DNA of 64,000 nucleotides from Acidobacteriota bacterium (lineage in GTDB: Bacteria > Acidobacteriota > UBA6911): assembly GCA_963664705.1 (NCBI GenBank), contig OY761556.1, positions 4,896,001 through 4,960,000 of the forward strand, given 5' to 3'. Positions 8,710 to 44,394 of the stretch are shown here, piece by piece (the first letter of the stretch is position 1; each line of letters begins with the position of its first letter). The notes beneath the pieces are model-generated. The model did not search any database, was not told the DNA's origin, and worked only from the letters and a program-made list of their open reading frames with translations. The translations under genes and the position numbers were made by a program.

Positions 8710-10554
8710 CTAATCCGGTATAAAATTATCGATATATTGCCGCGCAGCCCCGTCCTCGGATTTCGGCTGCTCGCTCTTAAGCAAAAGACAATTCTCAATC
8801 ACCAGTACATCCATTTCGGTCGCGATAAAGCAGCGATATGCATCCGCCGGGCTGCATACGATCGGCTCACCACGAACATTAAAGCTGGTGTTGATCAGGA
8901 CGCTGCAACCTGTTCGCCTTTTAAATTCGATCATAAGCCGCCAAAACCTGCCATGCCGCCGTTCATCCACCGTCTGCACGCGGGCGGACATATCCACGTG
9001 AGTGACGGCCGGAATGTCGGACCGCCTGATATTCAGTCGCGATTGCAGATCAGGCTCGCCGCGGCAAACATTCTGATTGTCTACTGCCGGGCACCGCCGC
9101 TCCTTGCGAACATCTGCCGTCAGCAGCATGTAGGGTGATTCATGGTTTAGTTCGAAATAACTTTCGACATCCTCGATGAGCACGCAGGGAGCAAACGGCC
9201 TGAAGGATTCCCGGTGTTTGATTCTCAGGTTCAGCGTCGACTGCATTGCGTCGTTGCGTGCGTCGGCGATGATGCTGCGTGACCCCAGCGCACGGGGACC
9301 GAATTCCATCCGGTTCTGAAACCAGCCCACGATCCTCTGTCCGGCGATCGCATCAACGGTGGCGCGCAACAAATCCGCTTCCGAATCGAAGGCGCGATAG
9401 GGGATCCTCTGCCCCTCCAGAAAAGTGCGGATCGCATGGTTGTCAAAGCTCGGCCCCAGGAGCGACCCTTTTTGAGAATCCGTATCGCCTGGCTTTCGTT
9501 CATTTTCCAGAAGCTGATGATGAACAAACAGCGCGGCTCCAAGGGCTCCGCCGGCATCGCCGGAGGCAGGCTGGATCCATATATCGTCAAAGAGCCCTGA
9601 TCGCAGCAATTTGCCGTTTGCGACACAGTTCAACGCGACTCCGCCGCCCAGGCACAGCGCGCGGGCGCCGGTCAGATTACGGGCGGTCCTCCCCATGCGA
9701 AGCACGATTTCCTCTGTGACTGCCTGGACAGAAGCAGCCATGTCCATTTCACGCTGCGTCAGGGGTGCTTCGGGATTGCGCGGCGAACCTTCGAAGAGCT
9801 GATCAAAACGACGGTTTGTCATTGTCCAGCCCTGGCAGTAATTGAAGAAGCTCATATCCATCCTGAATGAGCCGTCTTCTTTCAGGTCAATCAGTTTGTC
9901 ATAGATCAGCCCGGTATACTTTGGCTCGCCATACGGTGCCAGCCCCATCAGCTTGTACTCGCCTGAGTTCACTTTGAACCCGCAGAAGTAGGTGAACGCG
10001 CTATAGAGAAGCCCCAGCGAGTGGGGAAACCTCAGCGCTTTGAGCAACTCGATGCGGTTCCCCTGCCCGCGACCGATGGTAGCCGTATGCCACTCTCCCA
10101 CTCCGTCCATGGTGAGGATCGCGGCCTCGTCGTAAGGCGAAGGAAAAAAGGCGCTCGCGGCATGGGCTTCGTGATGGCTGGTGAAAACGATTCTTCTCCG
10201 ATAGCCTCCGCCCAGCGCCTTTCGAATGACTCCAGGCAGGTGAAGCTTGGATTTCAGCCAGAGCGGCATTGCCTGCAGAAACTGGCCCAAACCTGCCGGA
10301 GCATAAGCGAGATATGTTTCCAGGAGGCGGTCGAACTTGACAAGCGGCTTTTCGTAGAATACGACGTAGTCCAAATCTCCGGGTCCGATCCCCGCCTTAT
10401 CGAGACAGAATTGAACTGCGGCAGCGGGAAAACGATCATCATGCTTGCGACGGGAAAATCGCTCTTCCTGTGCCGCGGCAATCATCTCCCCATCAATCAG
10501 CAGCGCAGCCGCGCTGTCATGATAAAAGGCCGATATCCCAAGAATGGCTGTCAT
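8710..10554 (-). CDS. O-carbamoyltransferase, NodU/CmcH/TobZ family
   Basis: 'ILGISAFYHDSAAAL', 'HHEAHAASAF', 'DGVGE', 'GEYKLMGLAPYG', 'EFGPRALG', 'RESFRPFAP', 'NTSFNVRGEPIV'. Confidence 0.95.
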   Translation of the reverse strand: MTAILGISAFYHDSAAALLIDGEMIAAAQEERFSRRKHDDRFPAAAVQFCLDKAGIGPGDLDYVVFYEKPLVKFDRLLETYLAYAPAGLGQFLQAMPLWLKSKLHLPGVIRKALGGGYRRRIVFTSHHEAHAASAFFPSPYDEAAILTMDGVGEWHTATIGRGQGNRIELLKALRFPHSLGLLYSAFTYFCGFKVNSGEYKLMGLAPYGEPKYTGLIYDKLIDLKEDGSFRMDMSFFNYCQGWTMTNRRFDQLFEGSPRNPEAPLTQREMDMAASVQAVTEEIVLRMGRTARNLTGARALCLGGGVALNCVANGKLLRSGLFDDIWIQPASGDAGGALGAALFVHHQLLENERKPGDTDSQKGSLLGPSFDNHAIRTFLEGQRIPYRAFDSEADLLRATVDAIAGQRIVGWFQNRMEFGPRALGSRSIIADARNDAMQSTLNLRIKHRESFRPFAPCVLIEDVESYFELNHESPYMLLTADVRKERRCPAVDNQNVCRGEPDLQSRLNIRRSDIPAVTHVDMSARVQTVDERRHGRFWRLMIEFKRRTGCSVLINTSFNVRGEPIVCSPADAYRCFIATEMDVLVIENCLLLKSEQPKSEDGAARQYIDNFIPD

Positions 10555-29667: not shown

Positions 29668-30471
29668 TTACGCTTTCCTCCCAGGGCGCCCGATGTGAAT
29701 GGCGTCACGAGGGCAAAGGGATGTGCAGTCGCAGCAGTTTGTGCAGTTGACCTCTGCAGGGCGAGTTCCCATTTCACAAACTTGAAGGCATTGATTGCAG
29801 CCGTCGCATTTGTCGTCTTTGTAAACCTTAAACAGGGAAAGCGATTTGATAATTTCCAATGCGCCGCCCGTGGGACAGGCAAACCGGCACCAGGCGTTGG
29901 CAAGGAGCAGTCCCAGCAGGACGAATCCCAAAACAAAAACGGACCGGATCAGCCAGAGCGGATGCGCGTTCTTGAACGTAAACGCGAACGAAGCGAAGAA
30001 CTCTCCGATTCGAATCGGCACAGCTTCACGCGGTTGTCCATAAGGCAGCCAAATGCAGAGCGCCACCAGCAGCCCGATATACTTAAAATAGGGTGCGGTC
30101 TTCGTAAAACCGTTTCTGATTCGCAGCTTTGCCGACGATGCCATTCCAAGCAGTTGATGGAGTAATCCTCCGGGACAGAACCAACTGCAAAAAGCCCTGC
30201 CAAAAACCAGCGCGGAGATAGGTAGCAGGAGCCAAAAGCCCCAGAACATCGTGAGAAGCCTGCCATGACAGGTAATGACCGGGCAGTTCTGGCAGCTTAC
30301 GTACGGCACTATGAAAGGGCAGCGAAAAATGCCGTAAAAGGACCACTGCCCAAGAACAGCCAGCGAAGCGCACTGAGCAACCCGACGCCACCGGGTAACC
30401 GGCGCTGTTTTGCTTTCCTCCCCTGACAATTCGTTCATCACTGCAAGCTGAGCCACGTTGACCTTAGACAT
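29668..30471 (-). CDS. Membrane polyferredoxin (NapH/YccM-like 4Fe-4S binding protein)
   Basis: 'GRAFCSWFCPGG', 'WCRFACPTG', CDGCNQCLQVC, CTNCCDCTSLCP; TM segments. Confidence 0.88.
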   Translation of the reverse strand: MSKVNVAQLAVMNELSGEESKTAPVTRWRRVAQCASLAVLGQWSFYGIFRCPFIVPYVSCQNCPVITCHGRLLTMFWGFWLLLPISALVFGRAFCSWFCPGGLLHQLLGMASSAKLRIRNGFTKTAPYFKYIGLLVALCIWLPYGQPREAVPIRIGEFFASFAFTFKNAHPLWLIRSVFVLGFVLLGLLLANAWCRFACPTGGALEIIKSLSLFKVYKDDKCDGCNQCLQVCEMGTRPAEVNCTNCCDCTSLCPRDAIHIGRPGRKA

Positions 30472-31333
30472 CTTTCACCCCCAGTTTCTCAACCAAACGA
30501 CGCCCTTCATCCGACATGGCGGGGATAAAGCCTGCGGACTGAAAGAATCCCTGTCCTTCCTCCGACAAAATGAAATCCACAAAATGATTGGCCAGTGCCT
30601 TGTCGCGTGCGTTTTTCATCACGCCAATGGTGAAGGTCAGCGGACCGGCAGGGAAAAATTCCTCAGGGATTGGAAGAACCTCTACTTTTCCGCTGAAGAG
30701 AGGCATCCGCGTCAACCTGCATTCAACCACGGACACATCCCCTTTTCCCTTTACCAGATCCTCCATCGTGCGCTGGACGCAGCTGCCTTTGATTACAGCA
30801 TTTTTCATGGCCTGATCCAGAACTCCAGCCTTTTTCAGCAGCCCGGTGACCGCTTCTCCGCCCGGCGCTGAGGCATCGGGAGCAAGAATTACCCTGACCC
30901 CCTGCTTTGCCAGGTCCTGTATAGCTGAAATGCCCGCGGGGTTGCCTTTCGGCGTGACCAACACATAGGAAGTAAAGCAGAGCGGCTTAAAGAACGACAT
31001 TTTGTTCGCGCTGCGCAGCTTCTGGGCCAACGCGAGAACTCTTCCCGCAAATACCTCAGTGGTTGCGCTGCCCAAAAGCGATTTGCCTAAGGCGGCGGCA
31101 AAAGCACCGGTAAAAGCGATCTCAATTCCGGTCTTTGTCCGGTATTGCTTGTTTGCAGGAATAAAGGCTTCCGCCAGTCCACCACAAGCCCAGACCTGAA
31201 GCGTATTCTGCCCAAACGATAGTGATTCCGAACCGGCTGCGGCAACCGTTGCGCCTGCTGCGGCCCCGGTGGCGACAGTCAAAAAGGCCCTGCGGTTCAA
31301 GAGGGATTGCGGTACTGTTTCAGTCATATGCAT
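30464..31333 (-). CDS. ModA-like (molybdate/oxyanion) substrate-binding protein with Tat signal
   Basis: 'NRRAFL' Tat motif; 'LVTPKGNPAGI...DLA', 'APGG', 'FVDFILSEEGQ...GF'; four Cys. Confidence 0.8.
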   Translation of the reverse strand: MHMTETVPQSLLNRRAFLTVATGAAAGATVAAAGSESLSFGQNTLQVWACGGLAEAFIPANKQYRTKTGIEIAFTGAFAAALGKSLLGSATTEVFAGRVLALAQKLRSANKMSFFKPLCFTSYVLVTPKGNPAGISAIQDLAKQGVRVILAPDASAPGGEAVTGLLKKAGVLDQAMKNAVIKGSCVQRTMEDLVKGKGDVSVVECRLTRMPLFSGKVEVLPIPEEFFPAGPLTFTIGVMKNARDKALANHFVDFILSEEGQGFFQSAGFIPAMSDEGRRLVEKLGVKDV

Positions 31334-31595
31334 TCTCGCCTTTGAAAAGGTCGCGTAATCGAGTCTTAATTAATGGTGTTGAGACGCGTTTTATCTAAAC
31401 CTGCGCATCTCCAAGTTCAGCCCGGACCATATTGCTGGTTTGAGAAAGGAACGATGCTAATTCGGAATGCCCGTGAGATCGGCCCGCCCACAGATTCGTC
31501 CAACAACCCGGTCAGATGACGATCCTGTTTCACGTAAAGCCGAATACGTTCATTACGAAAGCCCTTGCGGATTCAATATAGTTAAGAAAATCCTT

Positions 31596-31636
31596 ATACA
31601 TATATGCTATCTATATGTCAAATAGATATATTTTAG
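31596..31636. promoter_or_regulatory. Tandem putative LysR boxes in the divergent promoter
   Basis: ATACATATATGCTAT (31596-31610) and ATAGATATATTTTAG (31622-31636); also the dyad ATCTAT-N7-ATAGAT. Confidence 0.5.
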
Positions 31637-31701
31637 GTTAATTATCGTTGTTTGAGAGAGCGAAACATCATTACTTTGCCGGTATTGTTTAACGAGGGAC
31701 C

Positions 31702-32592
31702 ATGGAACTGAGATATATCGAGATATTCTGCGCAGTGGTAGAACTGAAGAGCTTTTCCAAGGCCGCCCAGGCGTTGCATCTGACTCAACCGACGATCAGC
31801 GTGCATATCAAAGCCCTGGAAGACGAGTTTTCGACCAAGCTTCTGGACCGTCTTGGCAGAACGATCCTGCCGACCCAGGATGGCGAAATTCTTTACAGGT
31901 ATGCAAAAGAGATCGTCACTCTGAAAGAGAATGCGCGCAAGGCGATGGAAAGGGTCACCGGCACGGTGAGCGGCAAGCTTACTATCGGCGCAAGCACGAT
32001 ACCGGGAGAGTACTTGCTCCCGCGCCTGCTCGCTGGATTCAGAAAGGCTTATCCCGATGTATTTCCCACACTCCGGATCGCCGATTCGAATGACATTTAT
32101 GAAAGTGTGCTCCGCGGCGAAGTGGATCTGGGCGTCATCGGGAAAGAGGTGAAAGACAAAAACATCATCCTGCAAAAGTATCTGGGCGACGAGATCATTC
32201 TTGTCGCACCGGCAACATACAAGCCTTCCAAATTGCATCGAGACGAAGTCAAAACAGTCCCGCTGATCGTCCGGGAGAGTGGCTCCGGCTCTCGGTCTTC
32301 GCTGGAAGCCCATCTGCAAAGGATCGGACTGTTGTTGGACAGCCTCAATATTGTCGCGGAAATCGGTTCCACGCAATCGCTGATCCAGGCGGTGAAATTT
32401 GGCATGGGATTGGCCTTTACTTCCAGTCTTTCGGTCAAAGATGAGATTGAGCGAGGAACGTTGAAGGCCGTTCAAATAAAAGGAATGGCGATTTTCAGAA
32501 ATTTCTATGTCATTACTCACCGGCTGCGCTTCAACTCGCTGATTTGCAGATCCTTCATCGATTTCCTCACGCAGTCCGGCGGGAAAAAATAA
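31702..32592 (+). CDS. CysL-like / selenium-metabolism-associated LysR regulator
   Basis: 'SFSKAAQALHLTQPTIS', 'GASTIPGEYLLP', 'RESGSGSR'; divergent from the YedE cluster. Confidence 0.85.
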   Translation: MELRYIEIFCAVVELKSFSKAAQALHLTQPTISVHIKALEDEFSTKLLDRLGRTILPTQDGEILYRYAKEIVTLKENARKAMERVTGTVSGKLTIGASTIPGEYLLPRLLAGFRKAYPDVFPTLRIADSNDIYESVLRGEVDLGVIGKEVKDKNIILQKYLGDEIILVAPATYKPSKLHRDEVKTVPLIVRESGSGSRSSLEAHLQRIGLLLDSLNIVAEIGSTQSLIQAVKFGMGLAFTSSLSVKDEIERGTLKAVQIKGMAIFRNFYVITHRLRFNSLICRSFIDFLTQSGGKK

Positions 32593-32609
32593 CCAAGGTC
32601 TCATCTGCT

Positions 32610-32624
32610 ATAGATATATTCAAT
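32610..32624 (+). promoter_or_regulatory. Putative LysR box upstream of the porin gene
   Basis: ATAGATATATTCAAT; first 11 nt identical to 31622-31632. Confidence 0.45.
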
Positions 32625-32694
32625 TGGACATATTTAGGATCTAACGGTACTAATGCGGAACTAGTAAAGCCAACGATCCTACGGAGGGACATAC

Positions 32695-34182
32695 ATGCGA
32701 CAGTGGCGGTATTTTTTTTCAGGCGGGGTTTTTTTGTTATCGGTTTTGAGCGCGGCATTGATCCCCGGTAGTGTGCGGGCGGAAACCAAGCTATTTGCGC
32801 TAGACAAAAACACCAGTGTTTCGGCCTCCGGTGAAATTACGGCACGAAACACCTATGAAAACTGGTTTGAACCAGCGTCGACGAATTACAAAAACAGTTA
32901 CGATTATTTTTTTACGCGCACACGCCTGGCCATTGCCCTTCGCAATCCATACATCCATGCTTATGTGCAGGCCCAGGACGTTCACATGTGGAATCTTCCT
33001 GAAAGCTCTATTGCTCCGGCGCCTCAGGGAGCCCTGGGTAGCGGGGCAACCTATTACTCCCATGCCAAGAGCGATTTCGATCACAGCCTGATAATCCGGC
33101 AAGCCTACCTGGATTTCCCCAAGCTCTTTTTGAAGGGGCTTTCCACAAGGATTGGTCGCTTCGATTATGCGGATGGCCAGGAGGTCACCTATAAGGATAA
33201 TCCCAAGGTGACGTGGCTCAAGAACACGCGCTTGTCTGACCGGATGCTCGGCGCCTTTGACTGGTCTTCTTACAATCGCAGTTTCGACGGGCTTCAGGCC
33301 AAATATGACAGGAAGAATTTCAATCTGTACGTTTCCGTCACCCACCCGACGCAGGGAGGCTATGAGAACAATGCTCAGAAGACGATCTCTTCCATAAACC
33401 TGGGCAACATTACCGGCACGATCAAATATGGCGGATGGCTGAAAAACACTGAAGCGCGCATTTTCTATTATTATTACTTCGATCACAGAAACATTCCGAC
33501 CACACTCGGACAAAGCGGTCTGAAGGATGGACCGATTCGAATCAACACCTTCGGCACCCACTGGCTGCACACTGAAAGCACCAAATCCGGCGTATTCGAT
33601 ATGCTCTTCTGGGGCGCGCTCCAGGATGGGAAATGGGGCGCCGTGGATCACAAAGCATGGGCTGCGGCGATAGAAGGAGGGTTTCAGTTCACAAAGATTC
33701 GCTGGAAGCCCTGGATTCGAGGCGGCTATTTCGCCTCATCCGGCGATTCGGATGCCACGGACGGGAAGCATGAAACCTTTTATCAGATGCTTCCAACGGC
33801 TCGCAAGTATGCGCTTTTTCCATTTTACAATTTGATGAACAATGAAGACCTGTTCATTCAGACCATTTTGAAACCCAAAGAAGCTTTCTCCATTCGAGCG
33901 GATCTTCACAGCCTTAGCCTTCAGAACTCCCATGACCTCTGGTACATGGGGGCGGGCCCGACACAGAGTTCGGGTACCATATTTGGGTATACGGGGCGTC
34001 CCAGCAACAATCAGAGCGGGTTGGCAACAGTCCTGGACATTTCTCCCAGCTATACATTCTCCAAGTACCTGTCGGCAAACCTCTATTATGGTCACGTTTT
34101 TGGACGGGATGTCCTGAAGAGCATCTATCCCAAAAATTCAAATGGCGATCTGTTTTATATAGAGATGAAGACACAATTCTAG
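32695..34182 (+). CDS. Alginate-export family outer-membrane porin
   Basis: Signal peptide; 'IRQAYLD', 'RSFDG', 'SSGDSDATDGKHETFYQMLPT', terminal F. Confidence 0.8.
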   Translation: MRQWRYFFSGGVFLLSVLSAALIPGSVRAETKLFALDKNTSVSASGEITARNTYENWFEPASTNYKNSYDYFFTRTRLAIALRNPYIHAYVQAQDVHMWNLPESSIAPAPQGALGSGATYYSHAKSDFDHSLIIRQAYLDFPKLFLKGLSTRIGRFDYADGQEVTYKDNPKVTWLKNTRLSDRMLGAFDWSSYNRSFDGLQAKYDRKNFNLYVSVTHPTQGGYENNAQKTISSINLGNITGTIKYGGWLKNTEARIFYYYYFDHRNIPTTLGQSGLKDGPIRINTFGTHWLHTESTKSGVFDMLFWGALQDGKWGAVDHKAWAAAIEGGFQFTKIRWKPWIRGGYFASSGDSDATDGKHETFYQMLPTARKYALFPFYNLMNNEDLFIQTILKPKEAFSIRADLHSLSLQNSHDLWYMGAGPTQSSGTIFGYTGRPSNNQSGLATVLDISPSYTFSKYLSANLYYGHVFGRDVLKSIYPKNSNGDLFYIEMKTQF

Positions 34183-34458: not shown

Positions 34459-35577
34459 TCAAGCGGGCGCTTTCAGTCCAGTTTCCACCATCCACTCATC
34501 CTCGGTAAGAAAAAAGGAAAATTCAAAGCCTTCATCCATGCTGTAGCCATCCAGATGCCAAAAGCCCGGCCCGCATCTCGCCTTGGCCATCGTCTGGCAG
34601 CAGGGGCAATCGGCCTCCAAGGGGGAGTCTTCTTCAGGCGAAACCCATGGCATCCTTGTGCGTTCGTACTCAATAAGACACGACGGGGTTTGACCCTCGT
34701 ACTCAGGATCGGGTGAGTCCAGCCACTCTGCTTTTAGGCGCTCCAGCCGTGCAATTTCGTTCTCTATGGAGATCATCCTTCTTTTGCTCACCCAATTCCA
34801 GCAGTCGGTAATCAGCATCCGGACCAGATTGTAGTAAATCACGATCTCATGCGTACCGAATCCGGCAAAGCGATACGCATGGGATCCCTTGCTCAGGCAC
34901 GGAGCCGGCTTCTTGAGCCGATTCCACTGTATCTCCCGCGTCTCCATGTCCATATCAATATATTCGCGTTTCATCAAAAGGATTTCTCTCGGTGGCCGGC
35001 CGCCCAATTCATCGCGTGGCGTCACCAGCCATTTCGCGTGAATCTCAGCAACCGGATCTTTCAGATTTGCTTCTCGGGCTGCGCGACATTCATTGGCAAC
35101 AAATTCCGTAATGGCACCGTATAGAACAGGTCGCGCATCGATCGGTTGAATGGCCGCCCGTTTGGCGCGCCGCTCATCGGCGACGGCTTTGTATCCCTCG
35201 ACAGAATCAAGAAAGAGCCAATCACTATGGACCCGGTATGGCAACCATACTTCGGTGAGCTCCCGACCATTGTGAAATTGGACTTCTCCTTCCGGCATCA
35301 AGAAGGAGAAGGACGCTTCCGACGCAAAAACCCGTGCGGCCAGATCCACAAAAACAATCCCCAAATCCCAGGCTGCTTCGTTGACACCATTCAGAAACTG
35401 GTCCAGGTGCGGCTTGCCACCAACCGGCCTGGCAAACCGCGTCATGGCCTCCTCCACTTCTTCGATCGTCTCCGGTTCGGCCGCCAGCCCGGCCAGAATG
35501 GCATCAGCGATCGAGGCGTGAAGGGTTCCATTAACGGCACGGTTCGCATCTAAAATGTTGATTCTTATTTCGCTCAT
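34459..35577 (-). CDS. Hypothetical protein
   Basis: 372-aa ORF with GGAGG RBS; C-terminal 'DCPCCQ' and 'FWHLDG'; function unknown. Confidence 0.6.
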   Translation of the reverse strand: MSEIRINILDANRAVNGTLHASIADAILAGLAAEPETIEEVEEAMTRFARPVGGKPHLDQFLNGVNEAAWDLGIVFVDLAARVFASEASFSFLMPEGEVQFHNGRELTEVWLPYRVHSDWLFLDSVEGYKAVADERRAKRAAIQPIDARPVLYGAITEFVANECRAAREANLKDPVAEIHAKWLVTPRDELGGRPPREILLMKREYIDMDMETREIQWNRLKKPAPCLSKGSHAYRFAGFGTHEIVIYYNLVRMLITDCWNWVSKRRMISIENEIARLERLKAEWLDSPDPEYEGQTPSCLIEYERTRMPWVSPEEDSPLEADCPCCQTMAKARCGPGFWHLDGYSMDEGFEFSFFLTEDEWMVETGLKAPA

Positions 35578-35952: not shown

Positions 35953-36630
35953 TCAGTCCGAGGTGTCGGTGTCGCTGCGAGATTGGCGGCTCCGGATCCC
36001 CGCTTCGATATCTGCAGTCAGTAGCTGCCACAATTCCGGCTGCGCTTGCTGCCATTGTATCATCCAGGAACGGATGGCCTCCACCTGCGCCGATGCCAAT
36101 GCCGCGGTTTCCGGTGGCAGGGCATATTTGGACACGCTGAATATTTTCAGCTTCTTTTCCACCCATTTCTGAGCCAGGCCCCGCTGCGCCAGCTGATCCT
36201 TGACCAGATCCATGGCCTTGGCGAACGGATCCGCGTCATCCTCTTTGATGAAAAAGGAGACAACTGCCTTGACGTCATGAGCGGCACGGAGGGTTTGCAA
36301 TTGTTCGGACAGAGACCGGAGCGACGCTTCAAGCGACGGGGCAGGCAATACCGATGGGTTCGCTCCAATTTCGACCATTATCTGCCGCACGGTACGCAAT
36401 CCCATCATCGCCTTCTTGTCGTGAATCTCCAGGCGGATGCTCCCGTATCCGAACTCGCTCAGGAACGCGGCGGCATAGAGCTGGATCGCAAGCTGTCTTT
36501 TGGACACCACTGTGTCCTGGCCGAAAAGTGTATATTTATCGCCCATGCTTCCCTTGGGCACGAACTGGTTTCCTGCAAGGAACACGATTTCGCTCGGAGT
36601 CAGACAAGCATTTTCGGGGATGGGGGGCAT
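35953..36630 (-). CDS. Hypothetical protein, possibly GPP34/GOLPH3-like
   Basis: 225 aa; AAGGA RBS; 'DQLAQRGLAQKWVEKKLKIFSVSKY' resembles the GPP34 segment (weak). Confidence 0.5.
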   Translation of the reverse strand: MPPIPENACLTPSEIVFLAGNQFVPKGSMGDKYTLFGQDTVVSKRQLAIQLYAAAFLSEFGYGSIRLEIHDKKAMMGLRTVRQIMVEIGANPSVLPAPSLEASLRSLSEQLQTLRAAHDVKAVVSFFIKEDDADPFAKAMDLVKDQLAQRGLAQKWVEKKLKIFSVSKYALPPETAALASAQVEAIRSWMIQWQQAQPELWQLLTADIEAGIRSRQSRSDTDTSD

Positions 36631-37006: not shown

Positions 37007-37372
37007 TCAATAGGCAACGGACGGAGAGCCATTCGCCAGCCACTCTACCAGTGCTGCTCCTCCAGCCGGAGTAGCCCCCTTGATGAGCTGGTCTTCGCCG
37101 ACATTGCGTTTCTTCATGCAGGGAGTACAAACCAGGATCTTCCCCCCTCCCGCAACAAATTTATCCATGAGCTCTTTGAGCGGAGCGAATGGCGGACCCT
37201 CCTTGATTTTTTCCGCCTCTCCTTGTACCGCGCACCAAATGCCGTCACTGCTCAGGAATACCATCGTCTCCTTTTCACTGCCGAGTGCTGCATTGGCGAC
37301 CACGAAACCCAAAGTAGCCTTATCCCCATCCGTACGACAGTGAGTAATGGTTACACAGAATGTACCGGCCAT
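37007..37372 (-). CDS. DsrE/DsrF-like family protein
   Basis: 'FLSSDGI', 'GGKILVCTPCMKKR', 'PAGGAALVEW'; AAGGAG RBS. Confidence 0.85.
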   Translation of the reverse strand: MAGTFCVTITHCRTDGDKATLGFVVANAALGSEKETMVFLSSDGIWCAVQGEAEKIKEGPPFAPLKELMDKFVAGGGKILVCTPCMKKRNVGEDQLIKGATPAGGAALVEWLANGSPSVAY

Positions 37373-37437
37373 CAGTCTTGCTCCTTTCTTCTCGGAATAT
37401 TGTCCATAGTACAGTATTGAACCCCGGTTCAAAAATT

Positions 37438-38457
37438 CTAGTGCACTTCAATTTTTTTAATGCGCTTCACAGAACGTCCGCCGGTGCTGTCTTCCCCTGT
37501 CACCGACATTGCGAATCCATCGGCAGGCGACAGCGGTTTGCCGTCCTTCACTGTGGCAATGACAATCTGGTCGCCCATGCGCGAATTAAAAAGTTCGCCA
37601 AAGGAGTAGGTTGCGCAATAACCATCGTCGCTGGTTATAAGAACATAGCGGTTGTAGGGCGCGGGATCCGATATGGAGATGTATTTCTTCAGGAAAACAG
37701 ATAGCGGAACGCCATCCAGGTCATGGATCCCGTGGAAGCCCTCGCATTCGCCAATCATGACGGCTGCGGGAATGTGGATTTTGGGCAGAGCTTTGAGGTC
37801 CGCAGGATTCACAATGCGCTGAATTTTGCCGATCTGGTCGGTGAGGGAGAATTCGGTGCTGGGAGGACGAACCTTTTTCTTCTCCTGATCATCGTAGGCC
37901 AGGAGCTCAACATCCACACGAGAAACCTTTATCTCTGTCAAATTCGTCATTGTGCGGCCGTCATGAATATCCGTGGCAACAACCAGGGTTGGCGAACAAG
38001 GCAGCTCCTCGCGTTCATACGCTATCAGGACACTGCGCCCAATGCTGGAATAAAAGATCTCTCCAAACGAAAACACGATTTCCCGGTTGTCTCTATTCCG
38101 GATTTGAATGAACGTGCCCGGCTCCCATTTTCGCTTATGCTTCATCCCGGCTTTCCATAGAATGTCCCGCAGGAGGACGCCGCGAAAGGTGGTTTGTGTC
38201 ACCTTTTCCTTATCCTGCCGGTCACGCACCCGCTCCGGAATCACCGGGACATCGCGGATGAGAAATGGCGGCATCGCTTTGAGATCAGCAAGGGATACGG
38301 ACAATTCCTTTTGCAGCTCGCCTCGAACCGCAATTGAAGCCTCCTGGGAAAGGGCTCGCCTGGCCAGGAAGGGAGTGAGCAAAGAACAACACAGGCAGGA
38401 AACCATCCAACAGGCTTTCCCAGCCTTTGCAAAACGCATATTGAACAAGGAGAACAT
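37438..38457 (-). CDS. Exported protein with two tandem Oxidored_molyb-like (molybdopterin-binding) domains
   Basis: Internal duplication: 'FRGVLLRDIL...IVFSFGEIFYS...DIHDGR' and 'LDGVPLSVFL...ATYSFGELFNS...DSTGGRSVK'. Confidence 0.65.
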   Translation of the reverse strand: MFSLFNMRFAKAGKACWMVSCLCCSLLTPFLARRALSQEASIAVRGELQKELSVSLADLKAMPPFLIRDVPVIPERVRDRQDKEKVTQTTFRGVLLRDILWKAGMKHKRKWEPGTFIQIRNRDNREIVFSFGEIFYSSIGRSVLIAYEREELPCSPTLVVATDIHDGRTMTNLTEIKVSRVDVELLAYDDQEKKKVRPPSTEFSLTDQIGKIQRIVNPADLKALPKIHIPAAVMIGECEGFHGIHDLDGVPLSVFLKKYISISDPAPYNRYVLITSDDGYCATYSFGELFNSRMGDQIVIATVKDGKPLSPADGFAMSVTGEDSTGGRSVKRIKKIEVH

Positions 38458-38780
38458 CGGAAGCTCCCTTTGAGAATGCGGCAATCGCCTCGTTGCCGGC
38501 TCCTCGCGGGAGGTCTAGCAGGATGGTGGATTCCTCTGCAGAGTATTTCCCGGACGGATACGCAATGATGCGATCTGTTTGGTCATCAGCACTTGCACGC
38601 CGTGCAACCAATGCCGGGTTCAGGTTTTTCGTACGTAAATCACCATTTTTTCCTCGGGGGCGGAGTTTAACACAAGGTATTCGATCGCGCAATTTTTGCA
38701 TTCCTGCCCGATGAAGGAGCGCAATACCGGTGCGAACTGCAAAAATATTGAGATATAGGCACTAAAGGGTAAAAAGCCGT

Positions 38781-38808
38781 TAATGAAAAATATGCAAAAA
38801 TCCGATAA
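38781..38808 (+). promoter_or_regulatory. Putative sigma28 (FliA/SigD) promoter for cheW-MCP
   Basis: TAAT-N16-TCCGATAA versus consensus TAAA-N15/16-GCCGATAA. Confidence 0.45.
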
Positions 38809-38881: not shown

Positions 38882-38963
38882 GTGTCTTAACGGGCAGAAT
38901 TTTGGTTTGCAAGTTGAAGGCGCAGCGGGCATACGCGGTTCCAATGCCTGCTGCGCCTTTTTT
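38882..38963 (+). ncRNA. Candidate cis-regulatory leader RNA (antiterminator/riboswitch) with intrinsic terminator, copy 1
   Basis: GTGTCTTAACGG-GCAGA(loop)TTTGC-AAGTTGAAGGCGCA, then terminator AAGGCGCAGCGGGCAT/ATGCCTGCTGCGCCTT + T-tract; same core at 44253..44329(-). Confidence 0.7.
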
Positions 38964-39023: not shown

Positions 39024-39563
39024 ATGTCAACCATGTTGGTTCGGGATGAGCCCGCGATGTATCCGGCCCACTCCAAAACCGCAGCCAATGCTACCGATTT
39101 TGGGGGCAAGTTTCTGACTTTCTTTCTGGCAGAGGAGGAATATGGCATAGCAATCCTGAAGGTGCACGAAATTATCGGGATGATGGCTATCACAAGCGTG
39201 CCGCGAACTCCCGCCTTTACCCGTGGAGTCATCAACCTCAGAGGGAAAGTCATCCCGATTGTTGATCTTCGGCTGAAATTCGAAATGCCGGCGCAGGATC
39301 AAACATCGGAAACCTGCATCATTGTCGTTCATGTTCAAGGCATCGAGATCGGGATTGTCGTAGACAGGGTATCAGAGGTTTTGAATATAGCAGGAAGCGA
39401 TATTGAAGAAGCTCCATCGTTTGGAACGGATGTAAATACCGATTACATCCTGGGGATAGGAAAGTCGCAGGGCAAGGTCAAAATCCTGCTGGATATCGAC
39501 AGGGTCCTGTCGACCCGGGAAGTCCATGAGATTGCGTCCCCCGAAACGGCAAACATCAATTAA
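39024..39563 (+). CDS. cheW: Chemotaxis coupling protein CheW
   Basis: 'FLTFFLAEEEYGI', 'GVINLRGKVIPIVDLR', 'GIVVDRVSEV'. Confidence 0.95.
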   Translation: MSTMLVRDEPAMYPAHSKTAANATDFGGKFLTFFLAEEEYGIAILKVHEIIGMMAITSVPRTPAFTRGVINLRGKVIPIVDLRLKFEMPAQDQTSETCIIVVHVQGIEIGIVVDRVSEVLNIAGSDIEEAPSFGTDVNTDYILGIGKSQGKVKILLDIDRVLSTREVHEIASPETANIN

Positions 39564-39594: not shown

Positions 39595-41859
39595 ATGAAG
39601 TGGTTTTACAATATGAAGATTGCCTCAAAATTGACCTGTTTTGCGCTAATGATGGCTTTCATCGCAGCTGTAATCGGATACGTCGGGATCCGGCAATTGA
39701 AGACACTTCAAAACGCCGATGAGGGGATGTACCAAAACAATGTCATCCCGCTTGAAAAGGTTTCGGAGGTTTCCAAATCTCTCCAGAGATTACGAGTCAA
39801 TGTCAGGGATGCGCTGCTGAGCGAAACCCAAAAGGATAGAAACTACTATCTTGATAGAACGCGAGAGATACTCAAAACGCTCCCGCCGCTCCTAAAGGAA
39901 ATCGAAACCGGCGTAAAGACCCCGGAGGAAAAGGAAACTCTCGAGGCATTATCTGTCAGCCTTAAGCAATATACGACCGACTTTGAGCAATTTGCCACGA
40001 TGGTCAATGCGAACAAAAAGGGAGTGGCACTGGCATATATGCGCGGCCCCTTCCTGAAAACTGCAACCGCAGGGATCAATGCCATCGACAAGCTGGTGCA
40101 AGTCAACGCGGATTTGGCAAAATCCACGGCCGATCAGAATGGGGTTACGGCAACCCATGGCGAACGGCTTGTGCTGGTGATTCTTGGGGTGGGGATTGCC
40201 CTGGCGGTAGGACTCGGGCTATGGATATCGCGAATGATCGCAACACCCCTCAAGCAGGTGGCCGAGCGTGCGGAAAGGCTTCAAAGCATTTGCATCACCA
40301 ACCTGGGGAAAGCCAGTGAAGCTATGGCGCATGGAGAACTCAATGCCAAGATAGTCACCGGCACAGAACCGCTTCAATTGGACAGCAAAGATGAAGTGGG
40401 CGCCCTGGCTCAAAGTGTAAACGGGATCATTACCAAAACACAGGGAACCATCGCGGCCTTCGAGAAGGCAATGGCCAATCTGCGCAGCGTAACGGATGAA
40501 ATCAACGGAATGATCTCGAGCGCGCAGGCAGGCGATCTGGCGAATCGAGGGAAGGCCGAGCGGTTCGAAGGCGGCTATCGCGCTATGGTGTCAGGATTCA
40601 ATGCCACACTGGACGCCGTCGTCGGACCCCTGCAGATGGCCTCCACATACATTGATCGCATCAGCCGCGGCGACATCCCGCCCAAAATCACGGAAAATTA
40701 CAACGGTGATTTCAATAACATTAAAAACAGCCTGAACCTGTGCATCGATAGTTTGCATTCTTTGATTGAAGAAGATGGTGGCGCCGCGCTTCTCGCCGCC
40801 GCCAACAGAGACCTGACAGCCCGGGCCAAAAAGGAATATCAGGGTGCATTTGAAAAGATGAAGACAAACATCAATACCCTGATCCAAAACCTGGATGACG
40901 CTCTTGTCCAGGTTGCCCTTGCATCGGATCAGGTCACTTCAGCGGCCAGTGAGATCTCATCGGGCAGCCAGACTCTTTCTCAGGGAGCTTCCGAGCAGGC
41001 GAGTTCGCTGGAAGAAGTATCGAGCAGTTTGCAGGAAATGTCATCGATGACCAAACGCAATGCGGAAAACGCCAAGGAAGCCCGCAGCCTCTCGGAAGGA
41101 GCGCAGGCGATCGCCGATAGAGGCGTTGAAAGCATGAAACGGCTTTCCGAGGCCATCGCCAAAATCAAAGTCTCCTCGGATTCCACCGCGAAGATCGTCA
41201 AAACAATTGACGAGATTGCCTTCCAGACCAACCTGCTGGCCCTTAACGCAGCGGTAGAAGCGGCGCGCGCCGGGGATGCCGGAAAGGGCTTTGCCGTGGT
41301 TGCAGAAGAAGTGCGCAATCTTGCCATGCGCAGTGCCGAAGCGGCCAAGAATACCGCAAACATGATTGAGGAATCGGTCAAGAATGCCGAAGGCGGCGTT
41401 GCCATCAACCAGGAAGTGCTGAGGAACCTGACCGAAATCAATAGCCAGGTGAATCAGGTCGGTACGGTCATGGCTGAAATAGCCGCAGCCTCGGAGCAGC
41501 AGAGCCAGGGAGTTGAGCAGGTAAATACTGCGGTTGAGCAGATGAACACGGTAACACAGCAGGTTGCTGCGAATGCTGAGGAGTCGGCCAGTGCGGCGGA
41601 AGAACTGTCCGGACAAGCCGAGGAAATGAAAAGCATGGTGGGAACCTTCCAGTTGTCGAGCACGCTGGCCAATAGTTCCCGGCCGACAAACCGGGCACGC
41701 AGGCAGCCCGCCTTCACGCCAGTTCCCAGGGCGGGAAAGATTCTGGCAAAACCGGTTGCCGCAGCGCGTGCCAACGGCGGGCTTCACGGCAAGCCTCTCG
41801 ATCCTTCAAAGCTGATCCCATTTGACAATGATGACCAGTCCATCTTGAAGGACTTCTAA
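39595..41859 (+). CDS. Methyl-accepting chemotaxis protein (4HB sensor, poly-HAMP)
   Basis: Two TMs, HAMPs, '[37 protein letters not shown]'; C-terminal 'LKDF'. Confidence 0.95.
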
Positions 41860-41865
41860 AACAAG

Positions 41866-41904
41866 GGACGCTCCCCTGCCTTAAGGGGAGCGTCCGCATT
41901 TTCT
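41866..41904 (+). terminator. Intrinsic terminator after the MCP gene
   Basis: GGACGCTCCCCT / AGGGGAGCGTCC stem followed by GCATTTTCT. Confidence 0.7.
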
Positions 41905-43696: not shown

Positions 43697-44059
43697 TTAA
43701 CAACTGGATTTCAATTTGGTCAGTTTGCCAATTAGCTCCGTTGAGCATTTGCGGATTTTTGAGCTGTTTTCGACCAGAGCCAGTGCCTCATTCTTCTTGC
43801 CTTTGAGCGCCAGTTCCAAAATGTGTGCTGCTTCTTTATGGAATTCGGCATGAAGGGTTTTGATTTCCGAATACAGGGGAGTGCCTTTTACCTGTGGGGG
43901 AAAGTCGCCATAAAGCCACTTGCCAAAATCACAATTATTATCGGGTCTTACATTCTCGGGACTGAATTGACTGGTCCCTTCATTGATGGCTACACGCAAT
44001 CTGATAAACCAATTGGTATGTGCCGAGATTGCATTGTCAATCTTCTCCGTATTGGACAC
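43697..44059 (-). CDS. Stand-alone CZB (chemoreceptor zinc-binding) domain protein
   Basis: GTG after GAGGAG; 'SAHTNW', 'CDFGKWLY', 'HAEFH' (3His/1Cys). Confidence 0.85.
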   Translation of the reverse strand: MSNTEKIDNAISAHTNWFIRLRVAINEGTSQFSPENVRPDNNCDFGKWLYGDFPPQVKGTPLYSEIKTLHAEFHKEAAHILELALKGKKNEALALVENSSKIRKCSTELIGKLTKLKSSC

Positions 44060-44252: not shown

Positions 44253-44329
44253 AAAAAAAGGCGCGGTCACGCCTGATATGCGTGACTGCGCCTTCAACTT
44301 GCAGGCCCTTTGCCTGCCCGCTAAGACAT
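44253..44329 (-). ncRNA. Candidate cis-regulatory leader RNA with intrinsic terminator, copy 2
   Basis: Minus strand: ATGTCTTAGCGG-GCAGGC-AAAGG-GCCTGC-AAGTTGAAGGCGCAGTCACGC-ATATCAG-GCGTGACCGCGCCTTTTTTT. Confidence 0.7.
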
Positions 44330-44394
44330 AGACTTGTTACAACATGTCCACTACTTTATCGGGAGGCTTGATAGACTAGGTAAATAGTATTTTT

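Follow-up and report, generated by a model that had tools for sequence, protein, structure and literature searches.

Antitermination systems with a related architecture

To our knowledge, only few classes of antiterminator proteins are known, and the RAT elements recognized by one of them have the shape of a single hairpin with internal loops. The accessible parts of the pertinent reports describe the ANTAR domain as an RNA-binding output of response regulators (PMC3369931; PMC12591593) and the EutW/EutV pair as a system in which signal-gated RNA binding blocks an overlapping intrinsic terminator, the ANTAR target RNA being composed of two small hairpins with hexaloops that are conserved at positions 1 and 4 (A1 and G4; PMC3369931). 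In the CAT/RAT systems (BglG, SacY and LicT), as far as they are covered by the accessible text, an RNA element overlapping a terminator is stabilised by a phosphorylation-controlled protein (PMC12591593).

The locus analysed in the present study probably falls into the same functional class: a conserved leader structure competes with an overlapping intrinsic terminator, and a dedicated protein co-occurs with this RNA, with exceptions. It resembles EutW/EutV, as well as AmiR and NasR/NasT, in the combination of a histidine kinase with a receiver-fused regulator, in the long helical linker and in the modular sensors, and the receiver-domain matches obtained with Foldseek include EutV (6ww6) with a TM score of 0.52. 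In contrast to the ANTAR RNA, the target is a single irregular hairpin of about 42 nt, the loop of which is free in length and sequence. The ANTAR domain (PF03861) was matched by none of 23 members of the candidate protein family and was also not found in the genome that contains the locus, and a profile comparison (hhalign) of the candidate domain with an ANTAR protein yielded a probability of 0.2%. The likeness to CAT/RAT comprises one RNA element placed over a terminator and the single-hairpin site, whereas the input (two-component or metal instead of PTS), the C-terminal and predicted all-helical domain, the motility and signalling targets instead of sugar uptake genes, and an RNA without Rfam match are different. 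The data make it likely that the locus represents a new family of antiterminators whose mode of action corresponds to that of ANTAR in EutW/EutV, while domain and RNA are both distinct.

A hairpin RNA overlapping an intrinsic terminator upstream of cheW

The window, i.e. the whole stretch of 64,000 nucleotides that was analysed, contains two copies of the hairpin. Copy 1 is located at positions 38882 to 38923 of the forward strand and was delimited by sequence, folding and covariation. This irregular hairpin of 42 nt, the predicted antiterminator and protein site, is composed of a basal stem, the bulged G38916, a short middle stem with the invariant pair C38891-G38913 and the mismatch G38892.A38912, an upper stem and a variable loop. 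The accompanying intrinsic terminator (38917 to 38963, forward strand) comprises 16 bp, an 11-nt loop and a U6 tract; its arms cover 38917-38932 and 38944-38959, the U-tract extends to 38963, and the left arm begins within the 3' strand of the hairpin. The terminator ends 60 nt ahead of the ATG codon (39024) of cheW (39024 to 39563, forward strand; Pfam CheW, E=9e-39), which is followed as second gene by that of a methyl-accepting chemotaxis protein (MCP; 39595 to 41859, forward strand; 4HB_MCP_1, HAMP and MCPsignal domains). The sequence, the coordinates, the 16-bp terminator and the distance of about 60 nt given in the original prediction were all reproduced, as was the recurrence of the core on the opposite strand, where a copy spans positions 44253-44328. 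The hairpin of this copy 2 (44287 to 44328, reverse strand) was recognized by sequence, folding and pattern search and its overlapping intrinsic terminator (44253 to 44294, reverse strand) by sequence, folding and terminator scoring; the gene downstream (43697 to 44059, reverse strand) encodes a stand-alone chemoreceptor zinc-binding (CZB) protein (Pfam CZB, E=7e-13). The joint pattern occurred twice in the window compared with no occurrence in 100 shuffled sequences, and the hairpin alone gave a folding z-score of -3.4.

According to the folding calculations, the terminator state is the more stable one, by 9.2 kcal/mol in copy 1 and by 6.6 kcal/mol in copy 2, so that read-through would need a stabilising partner. 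The two folds had been described as mutually exclusive, which holds true only for the base of the hairpin: folding indicates that the contested part is the stretch of 6-7 nt (AAGGCGC) beside the U-tract, whereas the upper hairpin is compatible with the terminator.

Elements resembling the -10 region of sigma-28-type promoters and putatively functioning as such are present ahead of copy 1 (TCCGATAA, 38801 to 38808, forward strand) and copy 2 (CCCGATAA, 44356 to 44363, reverse strand). The motif CCGATA, which we take to be a -10-type element with respect to the sigma-28 consensus, is found within 130 nt upstream of all seven strong copies of the genome, with 0.04 occurrences expected per such upstream region; six cases were detected by pattern search and the seventh was read directly from the sequence.

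The surroundings of the locus contain further features. A perfect, G+C-rich inverted repeat of 12 bp (41866-41895) directly follows the MCP gene and has a terminator-like score on both strands. In the region 29668-34182, a LysR regulator gene is divergent from two genes, one coding for a molybdate-type binding protein and the other for a 4Fe-4S protein, with a gene for an alginate-export-type porin behind them. The region 37007-38484 carries a DsrE gene and a molybdopterin oxidoreductase-like gene; together, both regions may constitute a molybdenum/tungsten or sulphur module. Two genes on the reverse strand (34459-35577 and 35953-36630) encode proteins of 372 and 225 amino acids without Pfam family.

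Comparison with known RNA families

A search of the whole window against Rfam 15 yielded no match at the gathering threshold; the two copies gave only weak, chance-level matches at E<=10, and nothing relevant was detected in nine homologous loci. The original prediction had considered che1 or DUF1646/Na+-I as possible identities of the RNA. Neither is borne out by the model searches, as both che1 (RF02935; 150 of 455 candidates scored) and Na+-I/DUF1646 (RF03071) were without match in the genome at E<=1, and che1 was not matched at either copy. The c-di-GMP-I model (RF01051) likewise matched neither the copies nor any other site of the genome, in agreement with the earlier statement that the RNA does not look like this type. 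The nhaA-I model (RF03057), which also had no match at the copies, matched two unrelated places of the genome only. These above-threshold matches of the Li+/Na+-II type (G000:C1:6291370-6291423 and 6294065-6294118, forward strand, where G000 is the genome of the window) are 2.7 kb apart and serve as a positive control for the genome model searches. With respect to their features, the four motifs have the leader position, the chemotaxis gene context or, for Na+-I, the terminator overlap in common with the hairpin RNA, but all of them differ from it by the lack of a model match at the hairpin sites. Moreover, the genes downstream of the hairpin are signalling genes instead of the cation transport genes that constitute the context of Na+-I and nhaA-I.

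A likeness to the 3' end of the glutamine (glnA) riboswitch was considered and dropped, since there was no Rfam match and no loop-E AGUA sequence, and a repeat or mobile element was ruled out by the unrelated flanks, the sense-oriented leader position and the covarying stems.

A description of the hairpin RNA or of the protein domain introduced below was not found in the literature searched, although the RNA may be contained as an unnamed motif in supplements or databases; a term search gave no occurrence in the main text of PMC11109978 and PMC8632094 and, for the latter, in one short supplementary file. The hairpin is an uncatalogued cis-regulatory RNA family.

Distribution and conservation of the hairpin RNA

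In the genome G000 (6.89 Mb), seven strong copies are accompanied by a variant copy and by a 5' half. The second copy noted originally is thus real, and the total of eight full copies exceeds the two that had been counted. The full copies precede cheW-MCP gene pairs (two), MCP genes (three), the CZB gene, a gene for a PAS-GAF protein and a che operon. The 5' half (G000:C1:3222930-3222951, reverse strand; L268, approximately 9931-9952) has no 3' strand or terminator and is located beyond the che operon, before a PLP aminotransferase-like gene as judged by eye; its upstream sequence resembles that of window copy 1, and it is probably a decayed copy.

More than 150 further copies were found in Acidobacteriota, Nitrospirota, Nitrospinota, KSB1, Latescibacterota, Planctomycetota and one gammaproteobacterial MAG. 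A pattern scan of species genomes detected 36 loci, 32 of which were kept after removal of four chance or uncertain loci (L021, L040, L043 and L048) before counting; the kept loci belong to Holophagaceae and other Acidobacteriota, Nitrospirota, Nitrospinota, KSB1, Latescibacterota, Planctomycetaceae and a Methylococcales MAG. In metagenomes, at least 123 stretches with the pattern (97 distinct) were present, with six loci dropped before counting (L062, L089, L108, L136, L142 and L170). A covariance model, which is free of the bias of the pattern, recovered further variants; weak matches in G030, G004 and G153 were dropped before counting, and a few doubtful rows (e.g. L173) were retained among the 149 copies evaluated below and scored as failures.

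The original prediction had assumed that a ligand or protein controls chemosensory genes through this RNA. The data support a conserved cis-regulatory ON-switch, the regulon of which is wider than chemotaxis. Among 62 first downstream open reading frames that were scanned, 14 are chemotaxis or flagellar genes, two encode HAMP-only proteins, 19 receiver, kinase, PAS or LuxR proteins, 11 other proteins (including HU, porin, TpsB and FG-GAP proteins) and 16 are without assignment.

In several loci the RNA lies ahead of genes for small DNA-binding proteins, namely HU (L015, L035 and L047), XRE-type helix-turn-helix proteins (L210 and L212-L215) and, by eye, excisionase-like helix-turn-helix proteins (L398 and L399); by this arrangement, seen in Nitrospirales and others, the regulon would extend indirectly. 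In G074 (L216, L218-L221, L224 and L225) and in L390 and L391, most copies precede genes for large secreted proteins instead of chemotaxis genes; one of these proteins from the phylum of G074 contains FG-GAP repeats.

The stems of the hairpin covary. In an alignment of 61 sequences, 52 double-change cells were counted versus 20 in shuffled alignments, and 32 mostly non-pattern copies gave 55 versus 21, the middle pairs included, whereas the number of pairs with a double change in these 32 copies was not above the shuffles (9 versus 8.6). About five positions are near-invariant, namely the C-G pair, the adjoining G.A mismatch, the bulged G and the basal CC/GG; all of them are situated within one helix, and there is no conserved loop, junction or pseudoknot. 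Conserved bases inside an irregular helix together with a free loop represent the pattern that is expected of a protein site. A terminator on the 3' strand of the hairpin was detected in 124 of 149 copies versus 2.8% in shuffled sequences, the remaining 25 copies failing the strict test.

Four copies without a standard terminator (L094, L107:1492-1538, L112 and L135, located before a LuxR-type gene) are followed by a stretch that complements the 3' strand of the hairpin, which suggests that they use a different expression platform. Additionally, TTGAC(A/T) is present 50-70 nt upstream of many copies (59 of 149), and a sequence-variable hairpin abuts the 5' side of the motif in 38% of the copies compared with a background of about 10%; the transcript thus seems to begin directly with the RNA.

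A distinct response regulator as candidate partner protein

Clustering of 1,217 open reading frames around the copies revealed a distinct response regulator and no second shared family. The regulator consists of a receiver, a long helix and a C-terminal domain of about 90 amino acids with the motifs CxxxxCP and TK..FKSK.L..LR. This domain is usually receiver-fused and encoded behind a histidine kinase gene; a kinase gene preceded the regulator gene in all 13 loci scanned, which had been chosen by eye from 28. The RNA is located 20-277 nt behind the domain gene on the same strand in 47 of 74 distinct domain open reading frames, a count that is biased by the retrieval of most loci via the RNA.

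The domain family comprises 1,299 clusters at 50% identity, and its members are currently labelled as 'hypothetical', 'CheY-like' or 'DNA-binding response regulator' in the source databases. Beyond the receiver, no match to Pfam or NCBIfam was obtained, including helix-turn-helix and other DNA-binding families. About 45 conserved residues form a helix-loop-helix without enzyme-like match, and the conserved tail has only a slight basic character (net charge of +1 across the last 30 residues), which speaks against the RNA-binding role proposed below. The structural model of the domain is all-helical and of modest quality (pLDDT 70, pTM 0.34); a wide fold search returned only generic helical matches with a best Z-score of 8.0, further fold matches concerned the receiver domain, and these results are silent on fold novelty. 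The protein atlas contained one weak unnamed match (0.77).

In G000, the sole gene copy is located outside the window (G000:C1:665334-666122, corresponding to L267:10335-11123, reverse strand) and encodes a protein of 262 amino acids, the candidate antiterminator. A run of chemotaxis genes on the same strand, near the distal end of which it is situated, starts at the leader at 681004, one of the eight leaders of this genome.

Co-occurrence of RNA and protein

Among the genomes that were selected by the RNA pattern, 24 of 25 encode the domain. In Nitrospirota, 13 of 151 genomes have the domain, and all nine credible RNA-positive genomes are among them. In the phylum of G000, the pattern was present in 13 of 401 genomes and an intact hairpin in only three (G000, G373 and G435), all of which fall among the eight domain-encoding genomes; the ten non-hairpin pattern matches were rejected by sequence, and eight of their loci were rescored low. 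A prospective test was performed in a third phylum, that of G074, where the domain was detected in seven new genomes among 78. The RNA was present in all seven of these protein-first genomes versus none of eight protein-negative genomes, yielding 13 RNA copies, six of which adjoin the gene and seven of which are dispersed, with a terminator in 11 of the 13. Since the gene and the RNA are often adjacent, part of the co-occurrence represents co-inheritance, and the counts are inflated by this adjacency and by the kinship of genomes that are not independent, so that the corresponding Fisher values are too optimistic.

The exceptions comprise nine genomes in which the domain was found without credible RNA (G007, G011, G016, G025, G139, G211, G217, G575 and G589), and the receiver-fused copy of G026 was likewise found without RNA of the 3-bp type. 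G589 is a single contig, the matches in G139, G211 and G217 are located megabases into one contig, and several of the nine genomes keep an intact protein motif. In these genomes, the RNA may have been overlooked, the targets may have been lost, or the protein may have a second function; the RNA model misses diverged copies, one of which was seen by eye in L386, and 41-150 candidates were scored per genome. Conversely, G065 (a draft MAG of 2.7 Mb) is RNA-positive and the domain was not found in it. In favour of the link, decay of the RNA in G133 is accompanied by decay of the protein motif. In L387, a short open reading frame beside an RNA of the 3-bp type looks like a frameshifted receiver fusion.

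Other candidate effectors were rejected, since their distribution does not follow the RNA: ANTAR was present in one and an extra NusG in two of five motif genomes, and the CAT domain (PF03123) was detected neither in any of the five nor in the candidate protein, with the control giving a match in 4 of 14 cases.

Proposed mechanism and alternative explanations

The hairpin is quite probably the binding site of the C-terminal domain, which would act as a signal-gated antiterminator over chemotaxis and signalling genes; this reading is deduced from sequence data, and the role of the protein is based on guilt by association. In the default state, the terminator would fold and transcription would stop. 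The cognate histidine kinase, or CheA in the case of G000, would phosphorylate the receiver, and the activated protein would, in analogy to EutV, probably form a dimer via its long helix. The basic helix-loop-helix with the TK..FKSK.L..LR motif would bind the face of the hairpin that carries the C-G pair, the G.A mismatch and the bulged G, and the bound domain would clamp the irregular helix and keep AAGGCGC from the terminator, leading to read-through. By this means, one regulator would switch a dispersed regulon after initiation. The position of the G000 gene near the far end of a run starting from a leader suggests positive feedback layered on the sigma-28 promoters.

The original prediction had left the choice between a riboswitch and a protein-bound antiterminator, and the candidate domain shifts the evidence to the protein. 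That the RNA is a compact riboswitch of the ON type sensing an ion or a second messenger is regarded as unlikely; in this case, the linked protein would produce the ligand, release it, react to it or just be co-regulated. The targets, including receivers, kinases, MCPs, flagellin, HD-domain and surface proteins, presumably resemble the regulons of cyclic-dinucleotide riboswitches, and the sequence-variable hairpin that often abuts the 5' side of the motif also speaks for this option. Compact aptamers overlapping a terminator are moreover known, e.g. Na+-I according to the accessible part of PMC9337991. Nevertheless, the confinement of the few near-invariant positions to one helix, with neither loop nor junction nor pseudoknot conserved, and the conserved helix-loop-helix residues without enzyme-like match argue against a ligand-binding RNA.

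A DNA-level function appears even less probable, with the protein acting as a DNA-binding transcription factor or as a protein-interaction regulator at promoters or RNA polymerase and the hairpin being read by another factor. Most response-regulator outputs bind DNA, and the nine genomes with the protein in which no RNA was detected would agree with such a role, but the domain matches neither a helix-turn-helix nor any other DNA-binding family, the hairpin is the only conserved leader sequence and covaries as single-stranded RNA, and no further shared family emerged from the 1,217 neighbouring open reading frames. It is highly improbable that binding of the protein to the RNA favours termination, or that it shields the short terminated transcript, which would then act in trans as a decoy or small RNA: the terminated RNA would retain part of the site in its upper hairpin and some copies have no good terminator, but the fold that competes with the terminator includes the bulged G and those basal pairs that are conserved best, the terminator is already preferred unaided, and the copies are placed in sense orientation before functionally related genes.

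If the antitermination by the C-terminal domain is true, a second RNA-binding output domain of response regulators would stand beside ANTAR together with its target RNA, and a function would be assigned to a family of about 1,300 clusters without annotation. For Nitrospira, Holophagae and several uncultured phyla, this reading predicts that chemotaxis and flagellar genes are controlled after initiation, possibly with a metal-gated form in addition. Since the parts are small (an RNA of 42 nt and a domain of 90 amino acids), the claim is testable in a standard host and a confirmed pair could serve synthetic biology as an orthogonal RNA switch that is gated by phosphorylation.

A stand-alone protein form and a shorter RNA variant

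A stand-alone form of the domain with 88-102 amino acids, bearing His and Cys residues, is encoded in five of ten protein-positive relatives; the loci of this system are L276-L280 and L368. Three of the genes are located after feoB, one of these assigned by Pfam and two by likeness, one after a DtxR-like gene and one at a contig end. The stand-alone proteins cluster together in a quick tree with a support of 0.86. Within about 40 nt behind these genes, a variant hairpin with a middle stem of 2 bp, i.e. one pair fewer, is clear in four of the five cases and degenerate in the fifth; two of the variant hairpins show a compensatory change from U-A to C-G. The gene following the variant hairpin is porin-like or without assignment. 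In G013, where the stand-alone form was the only protein found, a dispersed copy of the 2-bp variant precedes a DUF2325 gene.

The stand-alone form and the variant RNA possibly constitute a metal-gated antitermination system. The His/Cys-bearing forms would probably be gated by metal instead of phosphorylation and act on porin and iron-related genes, which would represent a bacterial iron response via transcription antitermination. One ligand is hard to fit to both the chemotaxis and the iron-uptake contexts, each with its own protein form, which additionally argues against a riboswitch. With a somewhat better than even chance, the two forms together define a new antiterminator class distinct from ANTAR, CAT and HutP, comprising a two-component output for a multi-copy regulon of motility and signalling genes and a stand-alone, metal-sensing iron-uptake switch with a co-evolved shorter RNA.

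The pairing of protein form and RNA subtype deviates in individual genomes. In G012 (draft, 89% complete), an RNA of the 3-bp type is present and the stand-alone form was the only protein found. In G024, the receiver-fused form was the only protein found; the 5' strand of the hairpin at L364 (G024:C119:7841-7888) looks lost, and the 3' half and the terminator of the 2-bp subtype are located before a porin-like gene.
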